Assembly (NCBI GenBank): GCA_004431415.1 | Contig: QPMI01000575.1 | Coordinates: 1-64,000 of the forward strand | From: Cyanophora paradoxa CCMP329 | Lineage: Eukaryota > Plantae > Glaucophyta | Direction of reading: 5' to 3' | Length of the DNA: 64,000 bases | In this document: positions 18,426 through 48,687 of the stretch, in pieces | How the letters are laid out: every line of letters starts with the position of its first letter | Numbering within the stretch: the stretch's first letter is position 1 | The notes under the pieces: model-generated | The model's database searches: none | Seen by the model: the letters and a program-made list of their open reading frames with translations, nothing else | Told to the model about the DNA's origin: nothing | Translations under genes and position numbers: made by a program

Positions 18426-18733
18426 GGTTACATTAATGTTTAAAAAGTTACATGGAGTTACGTGATGGGTTACGTAGATATTTTACGATTACTAAGACCA
18501 TTCTCAGTGTTAAAATGGTTGATTTATCGCTATTTTGTCACTGTGAGTTACGGTTACGCAACTTTTTGAATTCTTTCTGAAAATTTGGCTGGGGGTCTTT
18601 TTATAGGTGAAGGTCTAAAACTTGCGTAACCACGTAACTTGCGTAACCTCTACGACATTATGGTGTCATTTCTCTATACTTTTAGGTTACGTAACGTTTT
18701 TACTTACGTAACTTGTGTAACCTTAACGTAACC
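18426..18733. repeat. GTTAC/GTAAC intergenic cassette R1 (copies 26985-27291, 46603-46909)
   Basis: Conserved core GTTACGGTTACGCAACTTTTT...CTTGCGTAACCNCGTAACTTGCGTAACC...GGTTACGTAACG...GTGTAACCTTAACGTAACC. Confidence 0.9.
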
Positions 18734-18810
18734 TTGTTATTCTTACATTTAATCACTGTTATACTATGATATCATGATAACTAAAAATGATACATGATAA
18801 TTGCTTATCT

Positions 18811-19272
18811 TTAACCACGTAGAGATGTTAGATGATCACAATCGAACATCTTAAAGATCTTGCATATCTCATTTTCAGGATCGGTGACATACCATAGACG
18901 GTGTCGCTTATCAAATAAAGCGCCTTGGTTTTTAATGTATTTACGTAATGATGCCTGGGTAAATATACGTTTAGCTTCTATTTCAGGTAGTTTAGTTTTT
19001 ATGTCACCAACGAAATATAGACGTTTCGGGCGATTATGATAATCAGGATCGATAACGATGGGGTTTATTGTAGGAAAGTGCTTTAAGATTCTGTGAAACT
19101 TGTAGCAAACAAACCAATACCCTGTGTCATCATCGAATTTAACGCCACAATCTTTGATATCTAATAGTGATCTGAAACAAGTATTACGGAGGTTGCTTAT
19201 ATCCAACATGTAAGCGCCGTAGTAATGGTGCGGCTCGTTTGTGGTGTTTCCGAAATAAATGAATTGATCCAT
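18811..19272 (-). CDS. 153-aa protein with two DUF5710-like motifs, copy 1
   Basis: IKDCGVKFDDDTGYWFV and IKNQGALFDKRHRLWYV resemble the K..GA.(W/F)D...K.WY motif; AAAATTGA 26 bp upstream. Confidence 0.65.
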   Translation of the reverse strand: MDQFIYFGNTTNEPHHYYGAYMLDISNLRNTCFRSLLDIKDCGVKFDDDTGYWFVCYKFHRILKHFPTINPIVIDPDYHNRPKRLYFVGDIKTKLPEIEAKRIFTQASLRKYIKNQGALFDKRHRLWYVTDPENEICKIFKMFDCDHLTSLRG

Positions 19273-19353
19273 TTGTAATCAGATGTTAAAAAGATTGTCA
19301 ATTTTTCATAAATCCTTCTCTGTAAAGTTTTGGTTAAACAATTGGAAAACTGC

Positions 19354-19672
19354 GGTTACACAACAGTTACACGGCGGTTACACTTGGTTACGCGGGGTTA
19401 CAGGTGAGGTTACGTAGTGATTTTTCGATAAACCACACCATTTTCAGTGTGGTAATCGATAAAAATAACCATTTAGATCCATTGAGGTTACGGTTACGCA
19501 ACTTTTTGAATTCTTTTTAAAAAAATGGCTGGGGGTCTTTTTATAGGTGAAGGTCTAAAACTTGCGTAACCGCGTAACTTGCGTAACCTCACGAGATTTA
19601 TGGTGTCTTTTTGGTATTTTTAAGGTTACGTAACGTTTTTACTTACGTAACCTGTGTAACCTTAACGTAACC
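19354..19672. repeat. GTTAC/GTAAC cassette R2 (copies 27912-28229, 45667-45983)
   Basis: Same core; GTTAC at 19355, 19366, 19377, 19387, 19397 and 19409. Confidence 0.9.
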
Positions 19673-19809
19673 TTATTATAACATCTTAAAAATGTCATCT
19701 GTTATCAAACGGTAGCGGGTGCGATACATAAGATCATGTCACGAGAAGCGATAGGATCCGCTTGTGAAGCGATGAAAAAATGAAGCAAATCTTAAAACTT
19801 AAACAATAA

Positions 19810-20310
19810 GTGAGATACAGCGGAATGTACAATATGAACGCGTCGGATATCCTGACCTACATTAAGAGTATTACCCATATTCCTGTTCTCATCGATGCTG
19901 ACCTATCTTTAAAGAAGGCAAACCCTAACACTATCTGTATTGTGCCGTATGATACTAAACATCGTGCGTATTTCGAAATGTTTCGTAAAAACTTGGGTTA
20001 TTCACCTAATACCCGTTTCGTCTGCTTTCTCACATTAGAGACTCACTATATTCTTGTTCCGGTTCTTACTGAAACATCGTGTAAATCGTTTATCTCTAAG
20101 ATCATCTCTAAATGGTCTATTAACCTACCTGCGCAATCTAATGAAACTAAGGAGTGCGTCATATGCCTTGATGACTGTAAAACTAAAATACAAATGTCTT
20201 GTTTGACATGTTTCGCCAAAATGTGCAACACATGCTTTTTACAGTTGAAGAGATCAGAGAGCTTTAAATGTCCGATCTGTCGTAATGACATAAAGACGCA
20301 ACGTGATTAA
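19810..20310 (+). CDS. RING-finger protein A, copy 1 (ATG start probably 19825 or 19834)
   Basis: CVIC-x11-CLTC-x4-CNTC-x11-CPICR, an all-Cys RING-like pattern. Confidence 0.8.
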   Translation: MRYSGMYNMNASDILTYIKSITHIPVLIDADLSLKKANPNTICIVPYDTKHRAYFEMFRKNLGYSPNTRFVCFLTLETHYILVPVLTETSCKSFISKIISKWSINLPAQSNETKECVICLDDCKTKIQMSCLTCFAKMCNTCFLQLKRSESFKCPICRNDIKTQRD

Positions 20311-20359
20311 TGTAAAAATTGATGGAAGATAAAAGTTTTTCTGAGTGTGCCGCTCTGAC

Positions 20360-20563
20360 ATGAAAGAGAAAATGAATAATGGACATTGGGTAACTTTGGC
20401 GACATTGCATAATAAGAAGATTGAGCTTATCCATCGGGAGGTTGATCTTAAACACACAAAAAGACAAGACCATGAAAGACTACAAAATGTTAAACAGTAT
20501 ATTGATGCAATCGATGTAATGATAGATGTAGTGAATACGATCGCTAAAATTAAGACCATGTGA
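20360..20563 (+). CDS. Small helical hypothetical protein, copy 1
   Basis: Short ORF with AAAATTGA at 20315-20322 upstream. Confidence 0.45.
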   Translation: MKEKMNNGHWVTLATLHNKKIELIHREVDLKHTKRQDHERLQNVKQYIDAIDVMIDVVNTIAKIKTM

Positions 20564-20593
20564 ATTTCATCGATAGCGCAAGCGCTATTTTTA

Positions 20594-20893
20594 TTACTTC
20601 TGTGTGCGGTTTTCAAGCTTCTGCCTCAATCTGAATGTTATAATGCTACCATCATGTCGTGCCTTCCCCCTTTGAATCGCTTTCGATATTTCCCCGGGTG
20701 TGTTCTCATCGAAATCAATGAATCGGGAAACCTTCTTTATAAACTGTCTCTGTAAATATCCGGGTAGTTGGTTGATATTACACCCGTCGTTTTTCTTAAC
20801 AAGGTTCTCGTAAATAATGCTACTGCGGTCATCCTGTGATAAATCGGGATTTTGAAGCTGTTCTATGAAAGCGTCGGGAATCCGTGAAGTCAT
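20594..20893 (-). CDS. 99-aa hypothetical protein, copy 1
   Basis: ATG-initiated ORF, AAAAATGA 32 bp upstream. Confidence 0.6.
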   Translation of the reverse strand: MTSRIPDAFIEQLQNPDLSQDDRSSIIYENLVKKNDGCNINQLPGYLQRQFIKKVSRFIDFDENTPGEISKAIQRGKARHDGSIITFRLRQKLENRTQK

Positions 20894-20938
20894 TGTAGGT
20901 TACACTGTCTATTTTGGCGGGTTGTCATTTTTTGCATC

Positions 20939-21247
20939 GGTTACATAGAGGTTACAAGAAGTTACAGAGGAGTTACGCAACAGGTTACGTAGATATTTTA
21001 CAACTGCAAGACGACTTTCAGTGTTATAATACAGGAGATTTAGTATTTTTAACACTGGCGGTTACGGTTACGCAACTTTTTAAATTCTTTTTAAAAAATG
21101 GCGGGGGGGTCTCTCTCAGATAAAATAGTGAAAACTTGCGTAACCGCGTAACTTGCGTAACCTCTACGACATTATGGTGTCTTTTCTCTGTTATTTTTGG
21201 TTACGTAACGTTTTTATCTACGTAACTTGTGTAACCTTAACGTAACC
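20939..21247. repeat. GTTAC/GTAAC cassette R3 (copies 29496-29804, 44097-44402)
   Basis: Same core; GTTAC at 20940, 20951, 20961, 20972 and 20984. Confidence 0.9.
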
Positions 21248-21273
21248 TTATTATTTAACATTATTCATCTTTA

Positions 21274-21810
21274 TTATCCATTTGCATATAACTTAGGTTC
21301 TAATGCTTCCATTCCGTCAAAAAATAGTTTAGTTCTACAAACTGAACACTTAGCATTCTCATGTGATTCAAGTGAAGAGAGGAAACAATTAGGACAAATA
21401 AGAGTATTGCAAACGATACAGCCTTTATTATTTATGTTAGTGTCAATGTTTTCAAGACAGATAGGACATGTTTCATTCGGACTCTCAAAGTTTTCCCTCG
21501 CGAATGACTTAATAATGATATCTACGAACCATTTGGTGTTCTCCTCATCAAGATATGGGACTAACATGTAACGGTGTTTATATGAGAATGCAAAACGAAT
21601 AGGTTGAAGGGCATGATATCCCGCCTTTTGCTTCCATGCATCAAATACCCCTTTATTCTTGCGGTTCTTTTGAATAAAGTATATAATCTGTCTTTCGTTG
21701 GCTTTCATTAAGAATTTCGTATAATTCTTATCATTCAGTTTATCTGATGCATTGACTATGGGATATGGCGAAATAGACTGTGAAAACGTCAATATATCGT
21801 TTAAATTCAT
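21274..21810 (-). CDS. RING-finger protein B, copy 1 (paralogue of A)
   Basis: CPIC...CIVC...CPNC...CSVCR; N-terminus MNLNDILTFSQSI resembles MNASDILTYIKSI. Confidence 0.8.
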   Translation of the reverse strand: MNLNDILTFSQSISPYPIVNASDKLNDKNYTKFLMKANERQIIYFIQKNRKNKGVFDAWKQKAGYHALQPIRFAFSYKHRYMLVPYLDEENTKWFVDIIIKSFARENFESPNETCPICLENIDTNINNKGCIVCNTLICPNCFLSSLESHENAKCSVCRTKLFFDGMEALEPKLYANG

Positions 21811-21844
21811 TTGGTTGTGCTACTATCTGTTACAGTTTCTTTAA

Positions 21845-22222
21845 TTAGCTTAGAGTTTTTTCAATGTCGAACACTCTTTTGAGAACGCCATCAATTCTTA
21901 CAGCATGTGATTTAATCCCGAAAATGCGCTTAATCACGATTCCGATGGCTGTTTTTGAAATCGGAAAGTCTATAAGCTCTTCTATTTCAGCATGGATTAC
22001 ATCGGAAGGTGTATAATCACCGTCATTACTTAACCTGTAACTATGCATTAAATACGCTTCCACATCAGACATCCCATGTTGATATTCGCCAATCCCATGT
22101 TGATATTCGCCAATCCCATGTTGATATTTGTCCATCCCATGTTGATATTTGCCCATCTCATGTTGATATTCGCCCATTTCCGTTTCATCCATAACAATTT
22201 CGATGTATTCCACGTCTTCCAT
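21845..22222 (-). CDS. 125-aa protein with 7-aa repeats and winged-helix-like C-terminus, copy 1
   Basis: Five 21-bp repeats ((G/D)(E/K)YQH(G/E)(M/I)); C-terminus resembles the C-terminus of the D5 protein. Confidence 0.6.
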   Translation of the reverse strand: MEDVEYIEIVMDETEMGEYQHEMGKYQHGMDKYQHGIGEYQHGIGEYQHGMSDVEAYLMHSYRLSNDGDYTPSDVIHAEIEELIDFPISKTAIGIVIKRIFGIKSHAVRIDGVLKRVFDIEKTLS

Positions 22223-22373
22223 GTTACACTTAACTGTTACATGTTAAAATTTTGTTACAAGTTTTACGGTTGATGTCCAAAAATTGACACTGTAAAACAC
22301 AGAAAGGTATTTAAGGGTTTGACTTAAAAGAGAAGTGAAAGGGAATAATTTCTTACCTTCCATTAGAGAATCA

Positions 22374-22814
22374 ATGGCGAATACTCGGAAATCAAACCAA
22401 GAGCTTATCGCTATTCAGAAAGGCGACCCGTTTGTAGAGATTGGAAAAAAGAAACCTGAGTTATCAATTGAAGAACAGGAAGAAAAGGCAAGGTTGAGAA
22501 GAGAGAAAGACAGGGAAAGAAAACGTGTAGCTTATCAGAAGAAGAAAGAAGAGAGACTCGCAAATGGCGAAAAAACAATACTGACAGCTGAGGAGCTGGA
22601 AAAGAGAGCCATATATTTACGTCGTCGATATGAAGAGGACGCGGAATATAGAAAAAAGAGAATTGAGAGTGCAAACAATTACCTGAAACAGAAAAGGCGT
22701 GAGAAGAAGACGGAGCCAAAACCCAAAGTGCAAACAGTGCCTAAGAAATCGGGAAGACCTCGAAAGTATCCCGACCCGATCACATCTTTATCGGAAAAAA
22801 GCGTAGCGAATTGA
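22374..22814 (+). CDS. Basic K/E/R-rich protein with AT-hook, copy 1
   Basis: KKSGRPRKY; charged helical region; AAAATTGA at 22280-22287. Confidence 0.65.
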   Translation: MANTRKSNQELIAIQKGDPFVEIGKKKPELSIEEQEEKARLRREKDRERKRVAYQKKKEERLANGEKTILTAEELEKRAIYLRRRYEEDAEYRKKRIESANNYLKQKRREKKTEPKPKVQTVPKKSGRPRKYPDPITSLSEKSVAN

Positions 22815-22828
22815 TTGATGGGAGCGCA

Positions 22829-22836
22829 AAAATTGA
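22829..22836 (+). promoter_or_regulatory. AAAATTGA (Mimivirus-type early promoter motif) upstream of primase-helicase; also 22280(+), 20315(+), 19298-19305(-), 36163(+)/37741-37748(-)
   Basis: Exact octamer, correctly oriented 26-233 bp upstream of starts. Confidence 0.6.
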
Positions 22837-22995
22837 CGCTTTACTTTCTCCTTTTTATAACCTAAGCCAAATCATTAAAGTGCCGTGGGCAACCGAAAAG
22901 CATTTAAGGACATCCCGAGAAGATAATTTAAACCTGGGAGTTTCTCACTTCCTCGGATTATTTTCTCTGAGAAATTTAAGAATCAATCGCGAAAA

Positions 22996-25876
22996 ATGAA
23001 TGCTAACACGAAAATCGCAACTCCCTGTGAGAGACTCGGTAACCTGTGCAAATTTACACCTGAGAAACATAATTGGGGTTCTTTCCTACATTGTCTCACT
23101 CCGAATACTGACAGCGAGACTGTCATAGAGTATTTCGACCATCAGATTACGGAAAGGATTAATGATGATTTGAAGAAAGGCAAAAAACCGACCTACGCCG
23201 AATGCATTCAGCCAAACGAAATAACACGTGTCTATCTGGATTATGACGGCTATGTGGATCTTAAACCGGATGTTGCCGATAACTACAAGGAAGCCGATGA
23301 AATCATTCGTGAAATGCGCAAGAGACTACACGAACTCACCGGTGCTACCATTGCTGTGTCCGTGCGTCATCGTCCTATCCATTTCGTTAAGGAAGACGTG
23401 ACCCAATTTAAGGTATCGGGGCATTTCGTCTTTACCGATCTGTGCTGTCGTCATGAAGACATCCCGAAATTCTTAAATGTAATCGGACTTACGCCAAAGG
23501 TGGATTATGACCCACTCGTTTATAAGACAAGGCAGGCGCTTGTTTGTCTGGGTAGTTGCAAGGGTAAATGGTTGGATTCCCAAAACAGACTAAACGCGAT
23601 GTTGATAAGGATGTAGTATTTACCAAATTCGTGGATTGTGAAACCATGTATGACAGCGACTTTTTCGCGCAATTCACGGATTGCCCCACTGTGCTTATCG
23701 ATGAATCAAACATGTATATGTTTGATGCTAACCTAACCCAAGATGAGAAAAACGAACGGTCGGCAAAGGCGGAAGTTGCAAAAGAGCAAATGAAGGAGGA
23801 AGGCAAGACTGAAACCAAGAAGGAGACGACCAAGAAGGAGACGACCAAGAAGGAGACCACAACAAAGAAGAAGGAGACGGCGACGACAAGCAAAAAAACA
23901 ACAAAGAAAACGGAGAGTGAAGAGCAGCCGGAGGAGTCTAATAACGTTTCATTTGAGAAACTGAGAGAAGTCGTGATGGGTCTTAGTGCTGAAAGATCGG
24001 ATACATACGAAGGTTGGCTTAATGTTGGTTTCGCAATCGCGAATGTTGGAGAGGAAAACAATATACCACCCACGAAACAGGAGGCGCTGTTTCACGAATA
24101 CTCCGAGAAAAGCCCTAAGTATGATTATGATGAATGCGCGAACAAATGGATGAGTATCCGCAAAGGCAAAAAATCCGGTTCCGAAAACAAAACTATAACT
24201 TTCGGCTCACTTGTGCATTATCTGAGAGAGGATAACCCGGACACGTATTATGGACTGTTTAAACCAAGCCGACAGTTTGCATTTATCGATGAGGAGGTGT
24301 GTATGGATGAGAATGACTATTCCGATGTTAGCGCCATGAATGATAAGATGGCTCAAATCAAATTAGAAATGGATAAGACGCTATTAAGTCAAGGTCTCCC
24401 ACTTCCTGTTAGCAAGATCTGTAAAGCATTAATTGGCTACAAAGTGCGGTTTTCACGTGGTCTGTGGTTGATCCTGAATGAGAAAACCGGATTTTGGAAG
24501 GTAGATAATAAGTATGATGGTGGTATGATAACTCTTATCGGTGAGGTTGTCGGGAAAGCATACTTAGACCGGGAGAACCATTGGGCTACCAAGGCGGCAA
24601 AGGCGGAGGAACAGAGCGATAAAAAGGAATTCGCAGTAAAGGCAGCCGCCTGTGCAAAAATTGCGCAAAAACTTAACTGTGGAGGTTACACGAAAGGACT
24701 TCTTACATATCTCTCTCATGACCTTTACGATGAGACATTTGCCGATAGGTTGGATTCAGTCGCGAATGTTGTTGGCTTTGACGATGGCGTTTATGATCTT
24801 AACACGTTTGAGTTCCGTAATGGTCGTTCTTCTGATATGATGACTAAGACAGTCTGTTATAACTATGATATTCCGGTGGATCCTGAGAAGGTCAAACGAC
24901 TCAATGACTTCTACATGGATATCACAGGTGACAATGTCGAACTTGCAAGATACATTAAGGCTGTTTATGCCAAGTCTCTAACGGGTAAAAATAACATGCA
25001 GTTTTTCTATATGTTTACGGGTATCGGCTCGAACGGAAAGAGCGTAATCGAAAATTTCATGCATAAGACATTTGGCGACTACTCACGAAATATGAGCATT
25101 GGGATTTTCACGAAGGAGGATAAAGGTAATGGAATGATTCCGGAACTTGCGAATAAGCAAGGTGTTAGGCTCGTCCATACAAACGAACCAAACACGGGTA
25201 GCAAACTGTTGGCGGGACAAATCAAGAATTTCACAGGTTGTGATGAGATCACAGTAAGAACCCTTTTCAAAGAACCAATTTCATTTGCTCCGATGTTTGT
25301 TATCGTCATCCTCTGTAATAATAACCTCGAATTTGATCAGCCCGACAATGCAGTAGCGCGCCGCTTCCGTTCTGTTCCATTTCAGCAGGTCTATGCCGTC
25401 GAACCTAAGCCCGGACAGAAGAAAGCGGATAAAGACCTTACCGGGTTGTTGAATCCCGATAATGACGTAAATGGTGAATGGCGCAGGGCAAACATGGAGA
25501 TTCTCATAGACATGCTTAAAAACCATGATGTTAATCATATAATCGACCATCCGCCCAATGCATCCTCGAACATTCCGCTAATTATCTCGCGGACAGCGAC
25601 CGTATCGGCACATTCCTAAGGGACAACTACGCTTTGGCGGAGGATAACACGAAATACATAATATGTGACGATCTGTTTAAGGATTGCTCAAATACGATGA
25701 GAGATGTTGATAGAAGAGCAGCGATAACAGGACGAGCTGTAAGCAATAAGGTGATGGAGGTGTTTAAGATCGGCTCGACTGTAAAAAAGGTTGGTGGAAA
25801 ATCGAAGCGTGTTTATCTCGGTCTCACAAAGAACCGCGCTAACGATTTTGAAGACGATGACGAAGATGTGGAATAA
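22996..25876 (+). CDS. AEP primase-PriCT-2-D5/SF3 helicase, copy 1 (two 1-bp frameshifts)
   Basis: YLDYDG, KVSGHFVF (AEP motifs); YEGWLNVGFAI..SEKSPKYD..ECANKW (PriCT-2); GFDDGVYDL (D5_N); Walker A GIGSNGKS; AVARRF. Confidence 0.9.
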
Positions 25877-27368
25877 AACTTATTGGAAAATATACTATTG
25901 ATATCTTTTTTATGATCATGAACCGTAAGACTCGGTTCTTAATAGAAGGTTACTTTAAGGTTTCTCGGAGTTACTCGGAGTTACTCAGAGAGGTTACGTA
26001 GCGGTTCCGTTAATTTGTTACCATTTTCAGTATTGATATACCGAATTTCTCTTTATTTCACAGCTGTGAGTTACGGTTACGCAACTTTTTGAATTCTTTC
26101 TGAAAATTTGGAGGGGGTCTTTTATAGGTGAAGGTCTAAAACTTGCGTAACCGCGTAACTTGCGTAACCTCTGCGTAACTTGCGTATCGATAATCTGTAT
26201 ATATTTCCGAATATTATAACTGAATCTCAATTAGATCTTGCCTCTGGTTAAAACTCCGCATTTTACTATGTGTGATTGGTCTGTTTGTTAATTGATTTAA
26301 TCGATATTATATTCATGTACTTTCTCGATTAAATTTAATTAAATTTAATTCATTTAATCGGAAATATATCGCTAAACTCGATTAAGATCCATAAATGATT
26401 CATTTGTTAAATAAAACAAATCGATCTCTTATTGAATCCAATCGTAATTATACATGAAACTTATATGTTTTTATCATGTTTTAATGATTCTAAGGGGGAC
26501 CCTTAGGATTTTTGAAATAATTGGGTGTGACACATACCATATTCAGTAAGGACCTCTTATATTGTGAAAATCTCAGTGTTAGTTGTGTAGTTGATTCAAA
26601 AAATGCATTTTATACTCTGATTCATTGTTATTTCCTGTGAAATTTGAGTCAACTCAACCCACTTAGTCAACCCTTGTATTGAATTCGTAACAAAATCCAT
26701 ATACTATTACTACTTTTACGATTAATATGAGTCAACCTTGAGTCCACTTTAATAATAGGGGGAATCTTGGGGAGATGTCATTGTAGAAAGCTATTGTAGT
26801 AAAATGATATATTATGTCCTTTTGTTACAATAGCTGATCAATGTTATTGTTAGAAAACAAAGGAATCCTTTCACTGGGATTTTGTTTTTTACGGTTATAA
26901 AATTGTATCTGTGGTGCATTTTGTCGAATTGCTTGTATTAAACTGTTTTGCTCTTCTATGTATTCGATCGTACTTTTATGTGAAGGTTACATTAATGTTT
27001 AAAAAGTTACATGGAGTTACGTGATGGGTTACGTAGATATTTTACGATTACTAAGACCATTCTCAGTGTTAAAATGGTTGATTTATCGCTATTTTGTCAC
27101 TGTGAGTTACGGTTACGCAACTTTTTGAATTCTTTCTGAAAATTTGGCTGGGGTCTTTTTATAGGTGAAGGTCTAAAACTTGCGTAACCACGTAACTTGC
27201 GTAACCTCTACGACATTATGGTGTCATTTCTCTATACTTTTAGGTTACGTAACGTTTTTACTTACGTAACTTGTGTAACCTTAACGTAACCTTGTTATTC
27301 TTACATTTAATCACTGTTATACTATGATATCATGATAACTAAAAATGATACATGATAATTGCTTATCT

Positions 27369-27830: not shown

Positions 27831-28366
27831 TTGTAATCAGATGTTAAAAAGATTGTCAATTTTTCATAAATCCTTCTCTGTAAAGTTTTGGTTAAACAAT
27901 TGGAAAACTGCGGTTACACAACAGTTACACGGCGGTTACACTTGGTTACGCGGGGTTACAGGTGAGGTTACGTAGTGATTTTTCGATAAACCACACCATT
28001 TTCAGTGTGGTAATCGATAAAAATAACCATTTAGATCCATTGAGGTTACGGTTACGCAACTTTTTGAATTCTCTTTAAAAAATGGCTGGGGGTCTTTTTA
28101 TAGGTGAAGGTCTAAAACTTGCGTAACCGCGTAACTTGCGTAACCTCACGAGATTTATGGTGTCTTTTTGGTATTTTTAAGGTTACGTAACGTTTTTACT
28201 TACGTAACCTGTGTAACCTTAACGTAACCTTATTATAACATCTTAAAAATGTCATCTGTTATCAAACGGTAGCGGGTGCGATACATAAGATCATGTCACG
28301 AGAAGCGATAGGATCCGCTTGTGAAGCGATGAAAAAATGAAGCAAATCTTAAAACTTAAACAATAA

Positions 28367-29450: not shown

Positions 29451-29830
29451 TGTAGGTTACACTGTCTATTTTGGCGGGTTGTCATTTTTTGCATCGGTTA
29501 CATAGAGGTTACAAGAAGTTACAGAGGAGTTACGCAACAGGTTACGTAGATATTTTACAACTGCAAGACGACTTTCAGTGTTATAATACAGGAGATTTAG
29601 TATTTTTAACACTGGCGGTTACGGTTACGCAACTTTTTAAATTCTTTTTAAAAAATGGCGGGGGGGTCTCTCTCAGATAAAATAGTGAAAACTTGCGTAA
29701 CCGCGTAACTTGCGTAACCTCTACGACATTATGGTGTCTTTTCTCTGTTATTTTTGGTTACGTAACGTTTTTATCTACGTAACTTGTGTAACCTTAACGT
29801 AACCTTATTATTTAACATTATTCATCTTTA

Positions 29831-30366: not shown

Positions 30367-30400
30367 TTGGTTGTGCTACTATCTGTTACAGTTTCTTTAA

Positions 30401-34503: not shown

Positions 34504-34812
34504 GGTTACTTTAAGGTTTCTCGGAGTTACTCGGAGTTACTCAGAGAGGTTACGTAGCGGTTCCGTTAATTTGTTACCATTTTCAGTATTGATATACCGA
34601 ATTTCTCTTTATTTCACAGCTGTGAGTTACGGTTACGCAACTTTTTGAATTCTTTCTGAAAATTTGGAGGGGGGTCTTTTTATAGGTGAAGGTCTAAAAC
34701 TTGCGTAACCGCGTAACTTGCGTAACCTCTACGACATTATGGTGTCATTTCTCTATTATTTTGGGTTACGTAACGTTTCTCCTTGCGTAACTTGTGTAAC
34801 CTCAACGTAACC
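34504..34812. repeat. GTTAC/GTAAC cassette R4 (truncated copy 25948-26172; inverted copy 39094-39400)
   Basis: Same core, directly downstream of the primase-helicase gene. Confidence 0.9.
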
Positions 34813-36191: not shown

Positions 36192-36362
36192 AACCTGTAA
36201 TGCAACGCTCTGTTATTTATGGTCGAATCTAATGATGCTACATATGTATTTGTCGAAAAAGAGAATTAACACACTCTAAACCTCTTTCGAAATGCTATAA
36301 TCCCCATTGTTTACTTTTCACTTTGTGAAAAATCCCTTTTGTATGTGGAAATATCTTTTTTT

Positions 36363-37508
36363 TCAGAGAGTCTTTAAGAATTGGTCAATACATCCTTTTA
36401 TGTTTTTTTCAGTGTATGGTATTCTTAAAAGCTTTAAATTATGAGTCTCACAGTATCTGTTTTTAATTCCATCTCTAATCTGTGTTATTTTAAATCCTTC
36501 TTCTCCCCCAAACCACTTAACAGGTTCAAAATGTTGTTGACCGTCAAACTCTATAACAATGTTCAGGCTTGGTATGAAAAAGTCAAACCTCAATTTATTT
36601 TTATAAAAGCAATCAGAAAACATATACTCTGTCTTGTGAGCAATGTCCAAATCTTCTAAATACCTTTTTATTTCCCGTTCTCCATGTGATGATTTACAGT
36701 GGGGACAGCCGCTTTTTTGTGAAAGATGATAATTTGGAACCTGAGAGAACTCACTATTACATTTTCGGCAAGTTAGGTTAACTTTTGTTTTCGAATCAAT
36801 ATAATTGACCTTTGAGTAATCATAATCATCTCCATGCACCTCTCTTGCTTTTTCTACAAACTGTCGCGTTGTTAACCTGAAAGTCTCGGAACGTTTTCTA
36901 TGACTACAATGTTTACAACCCTGTCCGCTTAAATGGTTTGCCGGTTCCATTAAAAAGAATTGCTCACAAGTCAGACACTGTATCTTAACTTTTACTTTTG
37001 AATTCACATAGTCTGCATGCTGATAATCATATTTTCCATTATGGGCTTCTGTTGCCTTTGCAACAAATGTGTCTTTTGTCAATCTCTGCTTTTGTTTCAT
37101 TGTTTTAATGCCTTTTTGGGGACATCCACTCCCCATTATATGACTGTTTGGCGTTTGAAAATAAAAATGATTGCATTCAAAGCAATAGATTTTAACCTTT
37201 GTTTGACTGTTAATATAGTCGACCTCATCATATCCATACTGTTCACCGTGCTTTGCTTTCGCTCTTTCTATAAACTCTTCTTTGGTATGTCTATTTTTAT
37301 CTTTAATTGTTTGGATTTTACACAATTTACACCCGCAACCTGATAAATGGTCATGGGGTGTTTGAGTAAACACCGTTTTGCAAGAAAGGCAAACTATCGA
37401 AACCCTTGTTGAGTTATCAATGTATTCTACATTGGCGTAGTTATATTTGTCTCCATGCTTGGCTTTTGCCTTTTCTACAAAACTCTCGGTTGTATCTTTT
37501 ACAGGCAT
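36363..37508 (-). CDS. 381-aa endonuclease: four DUF723-like Zn-ribbon repeats plus C-terminal PD-(D/E)XK/Vsr-like nuclease domain
   Basis: Four repeats of F..KA...HG..Y.Y....Y..S..KV.I.CxxC...F...P..H..G.GC; C-terminal LRFDFFIPSLNIVIEFDGQQHF..RDGIKNRYC..LLRIPY. Confidence 0.85.
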   Translation of the reverse strand: MPVKDTTESFVEKAKAKHGDKYNYANVEYIDNSTRVSIVCLSCKTVFTQTPHDHLSGCGCKLCKIQTIKDKNRHTKEEFIERAKAKHGEQYGYDEVDYINSQTKVKIYCFECNHFYFQTPNSHIMGSGCPQKGIKTMKQKQRLTKDTFVAKATEAHNGKYDYQHADYVNSKVKVKIQCLTCEQFFLMEPANHLSGQGCKHCSHRKRSETFRLTTRQFVEKAREVHGDDYDYSKVNYIDSKTKVNLTCRKCNSEFSQVPNYHLSQKSGCPHCKSSHGEREIKRYLEDLDIAHKTEYMFSDCFYKNKLRFDFFIPSLNIVIEFDGQQHFEPVKWFGGEEGFKITQIRDGIKNRYCETHNLKLLRIPYTEKNIKGCIDQFLKTL

Positions 37509-39470
37509 CTTATTAAAACTATAAACTGTTATACTTTTAAATAAATTTGTTCCGCGATATTTCCACATACAAAAGGGATTTTTCACAAAGTGAAAAGTAA
37601 ACAATGGGGATTATAGCATTTCGAAAGAGGTTTAGAGTGTGTTAATTCTCTTTTTCGACAAATACATATGTAGCATCATTAGATTCGACCATAAATAACA
37701 GAGCGTTGCATTACAGGTTATGGTTTGTTCTTGTGGGGCGTCAATTTTTGAGCGGGCAAAAAATGAAAACCATTTAAGCGGCATGGGAGACATCCTAACG
37801 CTCGTGCTAAGATTGATTGCAATGATGGAGACGCCGTATATGTACAACGGAAAGCCCGTGTTTTCAGTTAATACTTCCTTAATTAAAATCAATATCGACA
37901 GATTGATAATGTTTATGAATGAATTAGATAATAGCGACATAATATGGAAATTGAGCAAATCGGATATTTTACAGAGAATCCCGATATACATTATGCTAAG
38001 GATCTGACGGTTTGTTATATTTCTACAAAGTGAATTATTGGGAAATAGAAACGGAGCCGTTTGATTTACCTAATGATATATCGCGTTCCGAGTTTATCCA
38101 TATCTTAGACTTTGTCAAACTTTTGGGTAAAGATCACAACAATTGGAAGGTCGCGACGCAATAAGGAAGTTAATATTAAGGTCATTTCTTTCAGAATGCG
38201 AATGTTATCGGAACAGGAAAGAGTGAAAACGCTTTAATTTTCAAAACTACCTATACAGGACATTGTAGCTGTTTGCGTAGATCGAAACATAAACCTACAC
38301 GATCCTGTGGAGGTTTGCAAAAAGACCCTTTTTAAAGTGCGTTTAACAATAGGTCACACATTGTGATATTCTTCGTTTTGCTAATTTCTCTTGGAGACGT
38401 TCCCTAACAGATCCTGTGACTGTATTATGATATTTAGTATTTCTATTATCAGCATCAAATGACAAGATCATGTTTTGAAAAAGGTCTTTTAATTTTTGCT
38501 TTCTTGATGGTCTTCGTATTTCAGTGTTACCATAAGCGATTTGGGTAAATTCTTTACAGAAGTCTTCGAATTTCTCCATACATCTGTTTTCCGGATTCTC
38601 AAAGAATCGCGTATAAAAAAGAAGGGCGTCATGCTCTCTGATAGCGTAGAAGCTCTTCATTTTAAATGTTTTTTTTGTTTCTATTAATCATGCGTTACAA
38701 TTGTTTTTTATATTATTCAGCGTGTTAGATTCTCTGAATTCTGACCTTTACGCCTTTTGGAACCTTAACAGTGATGCATTCCGATGGTTCGACACGCTGT
38801 TTTTTCTTGTATAAATCAGGGTAGGTTCTCTCATAGTATTCTCGTATTCCTTTTAAGTCCATCTTGCGTGCAAGTGGTTTTAACTCTTCCGGAAGGTCTT
38901 TAATGAGATATTCACCCATGTCGATGCGTTCGGGGAGTTTGCAAGCCATCTTAATTATCAAATGAATATATCACAACAACCTTATATGTAGTTAAGATGT
39001 CATTTTTTCACTTTTTCCGATGTCTTACCTACATTCTATAACGCCAACAAATGATAACAAGAGAGAACATGTGATATCTATGTATTAATAGAAGGTTACG
39101 TTGAGGTTACACAAGTTACGCAAGGAGAAACGTTACGTAACCCAAATAATAGAGAAATGACACCATAATGTCGTAGAGGTTACGCAAGTTACGCGGTTAC
39201 GCAAGTTTTAGACCTTCACCTATAAAAAGACCCCCTCCAAATTTTCAGAAAGAATTCAAAAAGTTGCGTAACCGTAACTCACAGCTGTGAAATAAAGAGA
39301 AATTCGGTATATCAATACTGAAAATGGTAACAAATTAACGGAACCGCTACGTAACCTCTCTGAGTAACTCCGAGTAACTCCGAGAAACCTTAAAGTAACC
39401 TTCTATTAAGAACCGAGTCTTACGGTTCATGATCATAAAAAGATATCAATAGTATATTTTCCAATAAGTT

Positions 39471-42351
39471 TTATTCCACATCTTCGTCATCGTCTTCAAA
39501 ATCGTTAGCGCGGTTCTTTGTGAGACCGAGATAAACACGCTTCGATTTTCCACCAACCTTTTTTACAGTCGAGCCGATCTTAAACACCTCCATCACCTTA
39601 TTGCTTACAGCTCGTCCTGTTATCGCTGCTCTTCTATCAACATCTCTCATCGTATTTGAGCAATCCTTAAACAGATCGTCACATATTATGTATTTCGTGT
39701 TATCCTCCGCCAAAGCGTAGTTGTCCCTTAGGAATGTGCCGATACGGTCGCTGTCCGCGAGATAATTAGCGGAATGTTCGAGGATGCATTGGGGCGGATG
39801 GTCGATTATATGATTAACATCATGGTTTTTAAGCATGTCTATGAGAATCTCCATGTTTGCCCTGCGCCATTCACCATTTACGTCATTATCGGGATTCAAC
39901 AACCCGGTAAGGTCTTTATCCGCTTTCTTCTGTCCGGGCTTAGGTTCGACGGCATAGACCTGCTGAAATGGAACAGAACGGAAGCGGCGCGCTACTGCAT
40001 TGTCGGGCTGATCAAATTCGAGGTTATTATTACAGAGGATGACGATAACAAACATCGGAGCAAATGAAATTGGTTCTTTGAAAAGGTTCTTACTGTGATC
40101 TCATCACAACCTGTGAAATTCTTGATTTGTCCCGCCAACAGTTTGCTACCCGTGTTTGGTTCGTTTGTATGGACGAGCCTAACACCTTGCTTATTCGCAA
40201 GTTCCGGAATCATTCCATTACCTTTATCCTCCTTCGTGAAAATCCCAATGCTCATATTTCGTGAGTAGTCGCCAAATGTCTTATGCATGAAATTTTCGAT
40301 TACGCTCTTTCCGTTCGAGCCGATACCCGTAAACATATAGAAAAACTGCATGTTATTTTTACCCGTTAGAGACTTGGCATAAACAGCCTTAATGTATCTT
40401 GCAAGTTCGACATTGTCACCTGTGATATCCATGTAGAAGTCATTGAGTCGTTTGACCTTCTCAGGATCCACCGGAATATCATAGTTATAACAGACTGTCT
40501 TAGTCATCATATCAGAAGAACGACCATTACGGAACTCAAACGTGTTAAGATCATAAACGCCATCGTCAAAGCCAACAACATTCGCGACTGAATCCAACCT
40601 ATCGGCAAATGTCTCATCGTAAAGGTCATGAGAGAGATATGTAAGAAGTCCTTTCGTGTAACCTCCACAGTTAAGTTTTTGCGCAATTTTTGCACAGGCG
40701 GCTGCCTTTACTGCGAATTCCTTTTTATCGCTCTGTTCCTCCGCCTTTGCCGCCTTGGTAGCCCAATGGTTCTCCCGGTCTAAGTATGCTTTCCCGACAA
40801 CCTCACCGATAAGAGTTATCATACCACCATCATACTTATTATCTACCTTCCAAAATCCGGTTTTCTCATTCAGGATCAACCACAGACCACGTGAAAACCG
40901 CACTTTGTAGCCAATTAATGCTTTACAGATCTTGCTAACAGGAAGTGGGAGACCTTGACTTAATAGCGTCTTATCCATTTCTAATTTGATTTGAGCCATC
41001 TTATCATTCATGGCGCTAACATCGGAATAGTCATTCTCATCCATACACACCTCCTCATCGATAAATGCAAACTGTCGGCTTGGTTTAAACAGTCCATAAT
41101 ACGTGTCCGGGTTATCCTCTCTCAGATAATGCACAAGTGAGCCGAAAGTTATAGTTTTGTTTTCGGAACCGGATTTTTTGCCTTTGCGGATACTCATCCA
41201 TTTGTTCGCGCATTCATCATAATCATACTTAGGGCTTTTCTCGGAGTATTCGTGAAACAGCGCCTCCTGTTTCGTGGGTGGTATATTGTTTTCCTCTCCA
41301 ACATTCGCGATTGCGAAACCAACATTAAGCCAACCTTCGTATGTATCCGATCTTTCAGCACTAAGACCCATCACGACTTCTCTCAGTTTCTCAAATGAAA
41401 CGTTATTAGACTCCTCCGGCTGCTCTTCACTCTCCGTTTTCTTTGTTGTTTTTTTGCTTGTCGTCGCCGTCTCCTTCTTCTTTGTTGTGGTCTCCTTCTT
41501 GGTCGTCTCCTTCTTGGTCGTCTCCTTCTTGGTTTCAGTCTTGCCTTCCTCCTTCATTTGCTCTTTTGCAACTTCCGCCTTTGCCGACCGTTCGTTTTTC
41601 TCATCTTGGGTTAGGTTAGCATCAAACATATACATGTTTGATTCATCGATAAGCACAGTGGGGCAATCCGTGAATTGCGCGAAAAAGTCGCTGTCATACA
41701 TGGTTTCACAATCCACGAATTTGGTAAATACTACATCCTTATCAACATCGCGTTTAGTCTTGTTTTGGGAATCCAACCATTTACCCTTGCAACTACCCAG
41801 ACAAACAAGCGCCTGCCTTGTCTTATAAACGAGTGGGTCATAATCCACCTTTGGCGTAAGTCCGATTACATTTAAGAATTTCGGGATGTCTTCATGACGA
41901 CAGCACAGATCGGTAAAGACGAAATGCCCGATACCTTAAATTGGGTCACGTCTTCCTTAACGAAATGGATAGGACGATGACGCACGGACACAGCAATGGT
42001 AGCACCGGTGAGTTCGTGTAGTCTCTTGCGCATTTCACGAATGATTTCATCGGCTTCCTTGTAGTTATCGGCAACATCCGGTTTAAGATCCACATAGCCG
42101 TCATAATCCAGATAGACACGTGTTATTTCGTTTGGCTGAATGCATTCGGCGTAGGTCGGTTTTTTGCCTTTCTTCAAATCATCATTAATCCTTTCCGTAA
42201 TCTGATGGTCGAAATACTCTATGACAGTCTCGCTGTCAGTATTCGGAGTGAGACAATGTAGGAAAGAACCCCAATTATGTTTCTCAGGTGTAAATTTGCA
42301 CAGGTTACCGAGTCTCTCACAGGGAGTTGCGATTTTCGTGTTAGCATTCAT
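39471..42351 (-). CDS. AEP primase-PriCT-2-D5/SF3 helicase, copy 3 (two 1-bp frameshifts)
   Basis: Reverse complement of copies 1 and 2; frameshifts fall at different homopolymers. Confidence 0.9.
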
Positions 42352-43500: not shown

Positions 43501-43534
43501 TTAAAGAAACTGTAACAGATAGTAGCACAACCAA

Positions 43535-44070
43535 ATGAATTTAAACGATATATTGACGTTTTCACAGTCTATTTCGCCATATCCCATAGTCAATGCATCA
43601 GATAAACTGAATGATAAGAATTATACGAAATTCTTAATGAAAGCCAACGAAAGACAGATTATATACTTTATTCAAAAGAACCGCAAGAATAAAGGGTATT
43701 TGATGCATGGAAGCAAAAGGCGGGATATCATGCCCTTCAACCTATTCGTTTTGCATTCTCATATAAACACCGTTACATGTTAGTCCCATATCTTGATGAG
43801 GAGAACACCAAATGGTTCGTAGATATCATTATTAAGTCATTCGCGAGGGAAAACTTTGAGAGTCCGAATGAAACATGTCCTATCTGTCTTGAAAACATTG
43901 ACACTAACATAAATAATAAAGGCTGTATCGTTTGCAATACTCTTATTTGTCCTAATTGTTTCCTCTCTTCACTTGAATCACATGAGAATGCTAAGTGTTC
44001 AGTTTGTAGAACTAAACTATTTTTTGACGGAATGGAAGCATTAGAACCTAAGTTATATGCAAATGGATAA
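43535..44070 (+). CDS. RING-finger protein B, copy 3 (1-bp frameshift)
   Basis: Mirror of 21274-21810. Confidence 0.75.
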
Positions 44071-44447
44071 TAAAGATGAATAATGTTAAATAATAAGGTT
44101 ACGTTAAGGTTACACAAGTTACGTAGATAAAAACGTTACGTAACCAAAATAACAGAGAAAAGACACCATAATGTCGTAGAGGTTACGCAAGTTACGCGGT
44201 TACGCAAGTTTTCACTATTTTATCTGAGAGAGACCCCCCGCCATTTTTAAAAAGAATTTAAAAAGTTGCGTAACCGTAACCGCCAGTGTTAAAAATACTA
44301 AATCTCCTGTATTATAACACTGAAAGTCGTCTTGCAGTTGTAAAATATCTACGTAACCTGTTGCGTAACTCCTCTGTAACTTCTTGTAACCTCTATGTAA
44401 CCGATGCAAAAAATGACAACCCGCCAAAATAGACAGTGTAACCTACA

Positions 44448-44745
44448 ATGACTTCACGGATTCCCGACGCTTTCATAGAACAGCTTCAAAATCCCGATTT
44501 ATCACAGGATGACCGCAGTAGCATTATTTACGAGAACCTTGTTAAGAAAAACGACGGGTGTAATATCAACCAACTACCCGGATATTTACAGAGACAGTTT
44601 ATAAAGAAGGTTTCCCGATTCATTGATTTCGATGAGAACACACCGGGGAAATATCGAAAGCGATTCAAAGGGGAAGGCACGACATGATGGTAGCATTATA
44701 ACATTCAGATTGAGGCAGAAGCTTGAAAACCGCACACAGAAGTAA
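44448..44745 (+). CDS. 99-aa hypothetical protein, copy 3 (frameshifted)
   Basis: Mirror of 20594-20893. Confidence 0.5.
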
Positions 44746-45028
44746 TAAAAATAGCGCTTGCGCTATCGATGAAATTCACATGGTCTTAATTTTAGCGATC
44801 GTATTCACTACATCTATCATTACATCGATTGCATCAATATACTGTTTAACATTTTGTAGTCTTTCATGGTCTTGTCTTTTTGTGTGTTTAAGATCAACCT
44901 CCCGATGGATAAGCTCAATCTTCTTATTATGCAATGTCGCCAAAGTTACCCAATGTCCATTATTCATTTTCTCTTTCATGTCAGAGCGGCACACTCAGAA
45001 AAACTTTTATCTTCCATCAATTTTTACA

Positions 45029-45529
45029 TTAATCACGTTGCGTCTTTATGTCATTACGACAGATCGGACATTTAAAGCTCTCTGATCTCTTCAACTGTAA
45101 ATAGCATGTGTTGCACATTTTGGCGAAACATGTCAAACAAGACATTTGTATTTTAGTTTTACAGTCATCAAGGCATATGACGCACTCCTTAGTTTCATTA
45201 GATTGCGCAGGTAGGTTAATAGACCATTTAGAGATGATCTTAGAGATAAACGATTTACACGATGTTTCAGTAAGAACCGGAACAAGAATATAGTGAGTCT
45301 CTAATGTGAGAAAGCAGACGAAACGGGTATTAGGTGAATAACCCAAGTTTTTACGAAACATTTCGAAATACGCACGATGTTTAGTATCATACGGCACAAT
45401 ACAGATAGTGTTAGGGTTTGCCTTCTTTAAAGATAGGTCAGCATCGATGAGAACAGGAATATGGGTAATACTCTTAATGTAGGTCAGGATATCCGACGCG
45501 TTCATATTGTACATTCCGCTGTATCTCAC
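45029..45529 (-). CDS. RING-finger protein A, copy 3 (one F>Y substitution)
   Basis: CNTCYLQ versus CNTCFLQ. Confidence 0.8.
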   Translation of the reverse strand: MRYSGMYNMNASDILTYIKSITHIPVLIDADLSLKKANPNTICIVPYDTKHRAYFEMFRKNLGYSPNTRFVCFLTLETHYILVPVLTETSCKSFISKIISKWSINLPAQSNETKECVICLDDCKTKIQMSCLTCFAKMCNTCYLQLKRSESFKCPICRNDIKTQRD

Positions 45530-46064
45530 TTATTGTTTAAGTTTTAAGATTTGCTTCATTTTTTCATCGCTTCACAAGCGGATCCTATCGCTTCTCGTGA
45601 CATGATCTTATGTATCGCACCCGCTACCGTTTGATAACAGATGACATTTTTAAGATGTTATAATAAGGTTACGTTAAGGTTACACAGGTTACGTAAGTAA
45701 AAACGTTACGTAACCTTAAAAATACCAAAAAGACACCATAAATCTCGTGAGGTTACGCAAGTTACGCGGTTACGCAAGTTTTAGACCTTCACCTATAAAA
45801 AGACCCCAGCCATTTTTTTAAAAGAATTCAAAAAGTTGCGTAACCGTAACCTCAATGGATCTAAATGGTTATTTTTATCGATTACCACACTGAAAATGGT
45901 GTGGTTTATCGAAAAATCACTACGTAACCTCACCTGTAACCCCGCGTAACCAAGTGTAACCGCCGTGTAACTGTTGTGTAACCGCAGTTTTCCAATTGTT
46001 TAACCAAAACTTTACAGAGAAGGATTTATGAAAAATTGACAATCTTTTTAACATCTGATTACAA

Positions 46065-46525
46065 ATGGATCAATTCATTTATTTCGGAAACACCACAAAC
46101 GAGCCGCACCATTACTACGGCGCTTACATGTTGGATATAAGCAACCTCCGTAATACTTGTTTCAGATCACTATTAGATATCAAAGATTGTGGCGTTAAAT
46201 TCGATGATGACACAGGGTATTGGTTTGTTTGCTACAAGTTTCACAGAATCTTAAAGCACTTTCCTACAATAAACCCATCGTTATCGATCCTGATTATCAT
46301 AATCGCCCGAAACGTCTATATTTCGTTGGTGACATAAAAACTAAACTACCTGAAATAGAAGCTAAACGTATATTTACCCAGGCATCATTACGTAAATACA
46401 TTAAAAACCAAGGCGCTTTATTTGATAAGCGACACCGTCTATGGTATGTCACCGATCCTGAAAATGAGATATGCAAGATCTTTAAGATGTTCGATTGTGA
46501 TCATCTAACATCTCTACGTGGTTAA
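46065..46525 (+). CDS. DUF5710-like protein, copy 3 (1-bp frameshift)
   Basis: Mirror of 18811-19272. Confidence 0.6.
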
Positions 46526-48687
46526 AGATAAGCAATTATCATGTATCATTTTTAGTTATCATGATATCATAGTATAACAGTGATTAAATGTAAGAATAAC
46601 AAGGTTACGTTAAGGTTACACAAGTTACGTAAGTAAAAACGTTACGTAACCTAAAAGTATAGAGAAATGACACCATAATGTCGTAGAGGTTACGCAAGTT
46701 ACGTGGTTACGCAAGTTTTAGACCTTCACCTATAAAAAGACCCCAGCCAAATTTTCAGAAAGAATTCAAAAAGTTGCGTAACCGTAACTCACAGTGACAA
46801 AATAGCGATAAATCAACCATTTTAACACTGAGAATGGTCTTAGTAATCGTAAAATATCTACGTAACCCATCACGTAACTCCATGTAACTTTTTAAACATT
46901 AATGTAACCTTCACATAAAAGTACGATCGAATACATAGAAGAGCAAAACAGTTTAATACAAGCAATTCGACAAAATGCACCACAGATACAATTTTATAAC
47001 CGTAAAAAACAAAATCCCAGTGAAAGGATTCCTTTGTTTTCTAACAATAACATTGATCAGCTATTGTAACAAAAGGACATAATATATCATTTTACTACAA
47101 TAGCTTTCTACAATGACATCTCCCCAAGATTCCCCTATTATTAAAGTGGACTCAAGGTTGACTCATATTAATCGTAAAAGTAGTAATAGTATATGGATTT
47201 TGTTACGAATTCAATACAAGGGTTGACTAAGTGGGTTGAGTTGACTCAAATTTCACAGGAAATAACAATGAATCAGAGTATAAAATGCATTTTTTGAATC
47301 AACTACACAACTAACACTGAGATTTTCACAATATAAGAGGTCCTTACTGAATATGGTATGTGTCACACCCAATTATTTCAAAAATCCTAAGGGTCCCCCT
47401 TAGAATCATTAAAACATGATAAAAACATATAAGTTTCATGTATAATTACGATTGGATTCAATAAGAGATCGATTTGTTTTATTTAACAAATGAATCATTT
47501 ATGGATCTTAATCGAGTTTAGCGATATATTTCCGATTAAATGAATTAAATTTAATTAAATTTAATCGAGAAAGTACATGAATATAATATCGATTAAATCA
47601 ATTAACAAACAGACCAATCACACATAGTAAAATGCGGAGTTTTAACCAGAGGCAAGATCTAATTGAGATTCAGTTATAATATTCGGAAATATATACAGAT
47701 TATCGATAGACTCAGTAAGACTAATCGGAAAATAAGAGAAATTTACGATAAAATATCGAAAAGAATACAAAATAATCGAAATAAATGAATATTCGATAAG
47801 ATATACACAGATTATCGATTGATTGAAATAGAATATACGAGATATATCAACAAAATCAATTAAGATAAGCCGAGGGTTAAAACTCCGCATTTTACTATGT
47901 GTTGCTCACACCGCCACAGGGTCAGGAGCACAAACGAAAGACGGCACTAGCCTCGAACGACATCAGATGGTTTGGAGCGTCCCCCGCCCCACCCGACGCG
48001 TGAAGCTGTGCTCGACCTCCCGTTGTCCCCTCCAAAACTCCAGCATCCGACGATGATGCGTACAGATGCCTCTTCCAGACGATGGTGCGCCTGGAAGGAC
48101 CCGACGCTAAGCCTCACTGGCCTCAGTCCGCGACGATGATGCGCCGCGGACGCCCTGCTCCGAGCGATGGTGCGCTCGAGCTCGCTCCGACGTCGAGTAC
48201 CAAGGGACGCCGCACTTGGATTTCGAATTTTGCCACCTGCGGTGACGAGACGTTGAGCCCGCGTCCGTCTGATGCAGGTCCGACCCGGTCACGTTCGGAT
48301 GGACGACGACCTCGGGCCCTCCCGGCCCTCAACCGCCGTACGTCCCCCGTCCCACCCAGCTGTCACAGGCGCCCTCCTCGACCCGTCCTGATCAGGGCCC
48401 GGGCAGGTCCGCGCCTCGGCTGTGGACGCCGGTCCACCGGACATAATCGGCACGACGCCTCCTTTCTTCCCGAAGGCAGGCCGTCGTCGGCACCGGTGCT
48501 TCTCCTTTCTGTCCCGAAAGCAAGCAAGCACCACTTCAACGTTGCAGATTGCAAATTGCAAAACCAACGAATATTCACAGCTGACTCCGCGCGCCCTTGC
48601 TTGCGAAGCTGCAGCTGACACCCCACGCCATCTCGCGCTGGCCTTTTCGAACTGGCGGAGACCTAACCGCCAAGAAAATGTTCGAAG

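Follow-up and report, generated by a model that had tools for sequence, protein, structure and literature searches.

The 64,000-nucleotide stretch analysed here (the window: positions 1 to 64,000 of contig QPMI01000575.1, Cyanophora paradoxa CCMP329, assembly GCA_004431415.1) carries a 30,473-bp element in which twelve cassettes of short GTTAC/GTAAC motifs lie between the gene blocks. These cassettes are probably iteron origins, or self-loading sites, for the D5-type primase-helicase encoded by the element, of the type known from staphylococcal pathogenicity islands (SaPI) and phage P4, and the element itself is probably a satellite derived from a polinton-like virus (PLV). A sequence-only reading of this DNA had proposed iteron-like origins or D5 loading sites. 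Three lines of evidence now support the proposal: where the cassettes lie, how the C-terminus of D5 is predicted to fold, and what two comparative searches returned. The element and its cassettes are as follows.

17431 to 47903: whole element, 30,473 bp, 62% AT, layout T-A-A-B-U-B'-A'-T'
18427 to 18732, + strand: cassette a, copy 1
19355 to 19671, + strand: cassette b, copy 1
20940 to 21246, + strand: cassette c, copy 1
25949 to 26185, + strand: cassette d, copy 1, truncated by the tandem-duplication junction
26986 to 27290, + strand: cassette a, copy 2
27913 to 28228, + strand: cassette b, copy 2
29497 to 29803, + strand: cassette c, copy 2
34505 to 34811, + strand: cassette d, copy 2, 73 bp past the D5 stop
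39095 to 39399, - strand: cassette d, copy 3
44098 to 44401, - strand: cassette c, copy 3
45668 to 45982, - strand: cassette b, copy 3
46604 to 46908, - strand: cassette a, copy 3

Anchoring on the common core gave eight cassettes on the + strand and four on the - strand, eleven of them whole (305-317 bp) and one cut, in agreement with the twelve cassettes of about 310 bp counted by the sequence-only reading. A gapped core pattern returned the same twelve matches in the window and none in 100 dinucleotide shuffles. The four diverged paralogues previously described for each arm unit were recovered as types a to d, each present three times, with 69-78% identity between types and 99-100% within a type, where copies differ almost solely by single-base indels. 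All cassettes are oriented towards the centre of the element. The whole ones contain 14-16 GTTAC/GTAAC pentamers each, compared to 0.6-0.7 expected and a maximum of 5-6 in shuffles (10,000 each), and 175 of the 216 pentamers of the element fall within the 3.7 kb of cassette DNA.

The fuller form of the motif is RGTTACR. The left outer array consists of 4-6 GTTAC with a period of 10-13 bp, and the six positions first reported for one such array (19355, 19366, 19377, 19387, 19397 and 19409) are all exact. A spacer of about 72 bp follows, and then the inner array, where two GTTAC lie 6 bp apart on the left of a 68-bp core that contains an A/T tract and a run of G. On the right of the core, three GTAAC (spacing 8 and 9 bp) are followed by the perfect palindrome GTTACGTAAC and by three further GTAAC; the palindrome occurs in 11 of the 12 cassettes and in all four types, as the earlier description of oppositely oriented arrays had it. 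At least two penta/hexanucleotide iterons stand on each side of the core in opposite orientation. The helical phasing claimed for the cassettes is true of the left outer array only; the other spacings are 6, 8, 9, 11 and 17 bp. Likewise, conserved pentamers between diverging spacers are seen mainly in the left half. Conservation of the right half is block-like, with substitutions in patches. In the alignment, 77 of 85 motif columns are invariant compared to 120 of 249 other columns, a difference that is partly circular since the columns were defined by the motif itself.

The number of cassettes, four types in three copies, results from the tandem and inverted duplications of the element. In the tandem duplication, units of 8,560 bp repeat, and the breakpoint lies within cassette d, as anticipated; 12 additional bases at the junction (26174-26185) repeat the neighbouring iteron array. 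Such an end would fit slippage or template switching at an origin, in what is a single event. Differences among a to d are clustered: the 78 singleton sites include 37 neighbouring pairs of the same type (p about 0.0001), and these block-like differences suggest gene conversion. Comparison of positions 17400-38000 with Rfam gave no match, and an exact search with 16 bases of the core matched 21 viral loci, all of them without a motif array and with no more than 4 pentamers in the neighbourhood.

Cassette d starts only 73 bp past the stop codon of the D5 gene, the canonical place for an origin; a, b and c do not lie immediately behind the gene. The gene is present in three copies.

22996 to 25876, + strand: D5-type primase-helicase, copy 1
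31551 to 34432, + strand: D5-type primase-helicase, copy 2
39471 to 42351, - strand: D5-type primase-helicase, copy 3

All three copies are frameshifted in the assembly, at different places. At both breaks of copy 1, the short-read contigs of three DNA runs have single-base indels, and the frameshifts are therefore probably assembly errors. The protein comprises an AEP-like N-terminus, PriCT-2, D5_N, an SF3 helicase domain and, according to the predicted fold, an RFX-like winged helix; the Atlas assigned it to Pox_D5 (0.96). The C-terminal half was modelled with a pLDDT of 89, and the top Foldseek ranks were held by asfarvirus and poxvirus primase-helicases. The model superimposes on SaPI5 PriRep5 (7ola) with Z 12.7 and rmsd 4.2 over 225 aligned residues. 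Residues 199-276 match RFX1 (1dp7; Z 10.7, rmsd 1.8, 75 aligned), and further matches were obtained with RFX5 (Z 10.8) and with the phage P4 origin-binding domain (1ka8; Z 7.8, rmsd 2.4, 80 aligned). The C-terminal domain of D5, about the last 95 residues, is hence predicted to be an RFX-like winged helix. The RFX half-site is GTTRC, although a literature check did not confirm it. Origin binding by members of the D5 family occurs through this domain, as stated in the accessible part of PMC4889955.

Relatives of the protein were used for the first comparison. Locus searches with a single protein as query gave no matches, and there is no close D5 homologue, the best identity being 33-37%. In a tree of 181 sequences the D5 of the window groups with short-contig D5 proteins including those of loci L102 and L103 (support 0.82 and 0.90). 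Loci L176-L206 were retrieved with an alignment of this tree group, to whose first sequence they are 35-48% identical. Removal of incomplete genes and 90% duplicates reduced 34 relative loci to 23. A facing array is found at most 350 bp past the D5 stop in 20 of these 23, each time with its own motif, and the inner gap is mostly 53-71 bp compared to 68 bp in the cassettes. As controls, such arrays appeared in 12 of 920 shuffles and 19 of 380 other windows of the relatives' loci, in 5 of 58 D5 loci that come mostly from giant viruses, and in 12 of 38 further D5 loci; several of the control D5 matches clearly belong to the same kind of array, and at least two (L217 and L233, in coding-like DNA) are due to chance. 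Four relatives (L179, L191, L194 and L195) share the two-tier layout of outer array, about 75 bp (77-78 bp in the cassettes), inner repeats, core and inverted array, with an outer period of 10-11 bp in three of them. Additional array copies occur in 6 of the 20 (L102, L162, L177, L189, L193 and L198), that of L162 following from symmetry and that of L177 lying at a contig end; the other 14 have a single copy within the contig at hand. A common ATAGG/ATATGG core motif was found in 8 of the 20 only. A first generic array scan of 140 loci had returned mostly coding repeats and missed L102.

In most relative loci with enough sequence on that side, D5 is preceded by a small basic open reading frame (ORF). 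An A32 ATPase is encoded in L198; no capsid was identified in the relatives, the 481-aa ORF of L198 giving a Capsid_N E-value of 0.062 and no PDB match. Positions 1-9950 of L162 form a perfect 9,950-bp palindrome with two converging D5 genes, each followed by an array, and a hairpin centre about 170 bp further on; its arrangement suggests a hairpin end, a dimer junction or assembler read-through. The helicase parts of L191 and L195 have 94% identity, but the two differ in the wing and in the motif, with GTGGAGG iterons in L191 and GTGTCGG iterons in L195. Over the 23 loci, motif distance correlates with overall protein distance (rho 0.41, motifs picked by eye). Covariation of wing and iteron in the relatives is, on these alignments, suggestive only.

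The second comparison used the geometry alone, with no protein as query: GTTAC-GTTAC, 50-80 bp, GTAAC-GTAAC in viral contigs. At least 120 viral loci match. Among the matches listed, 80 have flanks, and an ORF of at least 250 aa ends beside the array in 48 of these. Six near-duplicates and six short frames were left out, and the remaining 36 ORFs comprised 26 primase-helicases (families D5_N, DUF5906, VapE, DUF927/Cch and AAA_25), one phage O-type initiator and nine without assignment. Thus, among these matches, the geometry marks primase-helicase genes without any protein query. Several of the loci also carry outer arrays, and some of the proteins end in a similar wing, a likeness seen post hoc. 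A wing pattern, likewise defined after the sequences had been inspected and to be taken as a lead only, is present in the D5 of the window, in 6 of 23 GTTAC-locus proteins, in none of 23 clade proteins, in 3 of 28 other D5 proteins and in 1 of 194 background proteins. Across loci L255-L334, facing GTTAC/GTAAC arrays stand behind primase-helicase genes of several unrelated families, possibly a common and under-annotated type of phage origin.

This origin type is already known from bacterial satellites and phages. The available text of PMC9371898 and 10.64898/2026.10.17.759575 describes SaPI origins as stretches of about 300 bp right behind rep, in which 6-12 iterons face each other across an AT-rich centre. 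The PriRep5 wing reads the iteron TGCAAC(C), according to the accessible sections of 10.64898/2026.10.17.759575, and TGTAAC(C) in the cassettes differs from this SaPI5 iteron by one base. The cassettes share with the SaPI origin and PriRep5 the size of about 300 bp, the short facing iterons, the place directly 3' of the helicase gene (cassette d) and the C-terminal winged helix (here predicted). They differ in their eukaryotic setting, the four paralogues, the 14-16 iterons and a core that is not clearly AT-rich. Moreover, the SaPI, or phage-inducible chromosomal island, is a bacterial chromosomal island with an integrase, whereas here the flanks are eukaryotic (Pop5-like exon) and no integrase was found. 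P4 alpha is also a D5-family helicase with an RFX-like origin-binding winged helix (here predicted; PMC4889955, in the part available); its primase is DnaG, compared to an AEP-like primase here.

Two further systems had been invoked for the cassettes. The baculovirus homologous regions (hrs) are dispersed multi-copy palindromic origins, and the SV40 origin is a pentamer array for an SF3 helicase; both have initiators and binding domains different from D5. The SaPI/P4 primase-helicase origin is the closer precedent.

If the cassettes are origins of this type, the winged-helix domains of the helicase hexamer would contact successive iterons on either side of the core of about 68 bp, a pair of hexamers would be loaded and open the A/T tract, and primers made by the fused primase would be extended by a polymerase taken from the host or from a helper giant virus. 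Cassette d would occupy the ancestral position just 3' of the helicase gene. Cassettes a, b and c would be duplicates of greater age that have stayed similar through selection on the motif and probably also through gene conversion, and would serve as extra origins or helicase-titrating sites. That all four types fire as origins is an evenly balanced proposition.

Several observations weigh against the origin reading. Three of the four cassette types are not beside the helicase gene, the 14-16 iterons exceed the SaPI range of 6-12, and the AT content of the inner core is 63-66% compared to 62% for the element, a single 28-bp tract reaching 75-82%. The D5 of the window is on a long branch (25-37% identity), its primase domain matched the relatives weakly (probability 6%), and of the clade loci L102 and L103 alone were placed on the tree, L176-L206 being assigned by similarity. 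The downstream array is absent in 3 of the 23 relatives, one of which has an array upstream, and covariation of wing and motif was not significant across the 23 loci once the helicase part was controlled for (partial 0.13, p 0.10). Finally, other sites of initiation have been put forward: terminal inverted repeats (TIRs) as PLV origins in the consulted part of PMC11296320, and terminal hairpins in that of 10.64898/2026.07.28.741278, which also notes remnants with TIRs that lack core genes.

Cassette d may be the only origin, with a to c as sites of copy-number or transcription control to which the same winged helix, or else the 125-aa protein of the element, would bind. The single array copy of 14 of the 20 relatives, the distance of a to c from D5 and three loose GTTAC between the 125-aa ORF and the basic ORF, in their divergent promoter, are consistent with this possibility, which we nevertheless consider rather unlikely since a to c retain the full geometry including the 68-bp core, needless for pure titration. 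It is more doubtful that the count of twelve, or the palindrome, is in part an assembly artefact. The copies differ almost solely by single-base indels, and the duplication junction and centre are known from the assembly and not from reads; however, the target-site duplication at both ends, the identical long terminal repeats (LTRs) around the element, the unique centre and the 12-base junction insert argue for a real structure, and the four cassette types would persist anyway.

The dispersal of the four types between gene blocks, and the conservation in all of them of a perfect palindrome that we take to resemble bZIP and RFX sites, would suit enhancers for transcription factors of the host or a helper virus, similar to baculovirus hrs. 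This is very unlikely: relatives have many different motifs at the same spot behind the helicase gene, the same geometry lies beside phage-type primase-helicase families among the matches listed, and the cassettes face the starts of genes as well as their ends. It is scarcely probable that the cassettes are sites dedicated to recombination for the shuffling of gene modules, the alternative offered by the sequence-only reading. The end of the 8.56-kb duplication within d, the patchy homogenisation of a to d, two contig joints connecting different cassettes and the L102 copies that bound modules speak weakly for this reading, but no recombinase was found among the element ORFs scanned, the junction joins a cassette to unrelated terminal sequence, and repeats and origins recombine readily as a by-product. 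The two joints (19575-26013 and 20915-19503) represent either recombinants or best matches of a diverged subfamily. A family of miniature inverted-repeat transposable elements (MITEs) that jumped into the element would account for units of about 310 bp with inverted motif arrays. Such a family would be dispersed in many copies, each insertion with its own target duplication. It is extremely improbable, as no cassette occurs outside the element within the window, all cassettes point to its centre, and their depth is like that of D5 and far below that of the terminal bins (summed contig depth in run X1: cassette bins 498-789, D5 413-973, terminal bins 8,000-12,000; depth is not a copy number).

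The remaining features of the element are listed below.

17431 to 17713: terminal segment, with an inverted repeat of its first 28 bp at 17686-17713; a mirror image stands at the right end
19825 to 20310, + strand: RING-finger ORF, 31% identical to the RING ORF at 21274-21810
21274 to 21810, - strand: second RING ORF, paralogue of 19825 to 20310
21845 to 22222, - strand: 125-aa ORF, possible stand-alone winged helix
22374 to 22814, + strand: 146-aa basic ORF directly upstream of D5
22829 to 22836, + strand: AAAATTGA, 167 bp upstream of D5; early promoter motif of giant viruses
36356 to 37555, - strand: unique 1.2-kb palindrome centre with a homing-endonuclease-like gene at 36363-37568

The non-redundant part of the element amounts to 11.6 kb, with arms of about 10 kb, and both sides are bounded by the 6-bp target-site duplication TGCTCA. 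The inverted 28-bp terminal repeat is a possible terminal hairpin or integration site. The 12 non-redundant ORFs comprise D5, the basic ORF preceding it, the two RING paralogues, the homing-endonuclease-like gene and small ORFs without match. No capsid, packaging ATPase, protease, polymerase, integrase or tyrosine recombinase was matched in these 12 ORFs, and no unexplained frame long enough for such genes remains in the element. The highest 19-residue hydropathy across 11 of the ORFs was 1.38, giving no membrane protein. The 146-aa basic ORF matched the profile of its counterpart in the relatives weakly (11.2 bits compared to at most 6.0 in 500 shuffles).

The 125-aa protein, put forward earlier as a second candidate ligand of the cassettes, is a weak lead for a winged helix. 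Three GTTAC (22223, 22236 and 22254) lie just upstream of its start. It gave no BLAST or profile match to the D5 C-terminus and a score not above shuffles with two winged-helix profiles, its single-sequence fold failed (pLDDT 50), and a homologue search found none. A role like that of Cnr, presumed by analogy with P4, is unsupported. Contigs about 87% identical at 21870-22288 and 24542-25040 point to a second, diverged subfamily in the same organism, which is without the 21-bp coding repeat of the 125-aa ORF and keeps its C-terminal part.

The motif AAAATTGA occurs six times in the element compared to about 1.3 expected, and stands upstream of 4 of the 12 ORFs at 33, 45, 94 and 167 bp, the last being D5. 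It is the early promoter of giant viruses and is also used by a PLV and a transpoviron, as reported in the parts available of PMC11788076 and 10.1101/2022.07.28.501842. TIRs, a 6-bp target duplication, low GC, RING and homing-nuclease genes, this motif and a D5 replication gene are shared with PLVs and virophages; unlike these, the element has no capsid, ATPase, protease or integrase gene and has arms of about 10 kb. In the sections of the transpoviron literature available, TIRs, a helicase, zinc-finger genes, the lack of a capsid and AAAATTGA upstream of the helicase are likenesses. A transpoviron, however, is a linear DNA of about 7 kb with an SF1 helicase and a membrane protein that travels in giant-virus particles, whereas the 30.5-kb element has an SF3 helicase and no membrane protein and is integrated in a cell genome; it has no known helper virus. 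The carrier is a TIR element without capsid or integrase genes. It likely stems from the replication module of a PLV, and both its integration in trans and its early transcription by a giant virus are likely.

The element sits within an LTR element with identical 475-bp LTRs (16486-16960 and 50865-51339), a 4-bp target duplication and about 3.4 kb of internal sequence, whose 525-aa ORF (48688-50265, - strand) has no Pfam match. The insertion is young, because the surrounding LTRs are identical. The flanking host DNA is rich in GC and has short introns, as does the Pop5/Rpp14-like host gene at 63338-63900; these features suggest a unicellular eukaryote. The stretch was matched in 20 of 24 listed sequencing runs, all from the same organism and none of them listed as RNA. 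A second contig (run X22) represents another insertion that also starts at 17431, with a different flank. Contig depth of near-identical D5 was 496 compared to 57-73 for the host flanks in X1 and 151 compared to 17-19 in X11; depth itself is not a copy number, and the ratio suggests about 7-8 copies. The terminal 900 bp (17374-18441) are 10-20 times deeper than the body of the element, which means that the genome has many other elements with the same ends. Elsewhere in the window, positions 1-4587 hold the end of another virus-like element, AT-rich and decayed, which is a candidate for a relative of the helper. It has C1q-domain fibre-like ORFs, an AdoMet decarboxylase fragment, a terminal palindrome of 69 bp and 57 bp of sequence with 86% identity to the terminal region of the 30.5-kb element. 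A 170-bp satellite of about 36 copies (90% identity) occupies 5215-11370.

A literature search, covering few subscription papers and no supplements, found no description of iteron origins in PLVs or virophages. It spans PMC10120064, PMC12220804, PMC3671162 and PMC5838959 in part, sources whose further annotations may contain some. Internal iteron origins are likewise not described for these viruses in the sections available of PMC11296320 and 10.64898/2026.07.28.741278, where TIRs or terminal hairpins are the sites proposed for the start of replication in PLVs without a protein-primed polymerase. PMC11296320 also mentions direct repeats of >300 bp in Gezel-14T. The cassettes provide a concrete candidate origin for PLV-type elements, together with a predicted binding domain and about 20 natural protein-motif pairs. 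This kind of element would escape capsid-based surveys of endogenous viruses, and the array gives a DNA signature for finding others. We tentatively propose, as a possibility, that endogenous capsid-less PLV satellites exist which replicate as giant palindromes from several phage-type iteron origins, and that D5-type PLVs have a wing-to-iteron code keeping the helicase on its own origin. If true, such a code would hold each helicase to its own origin, in the manner of plasmid incompatibility groups.

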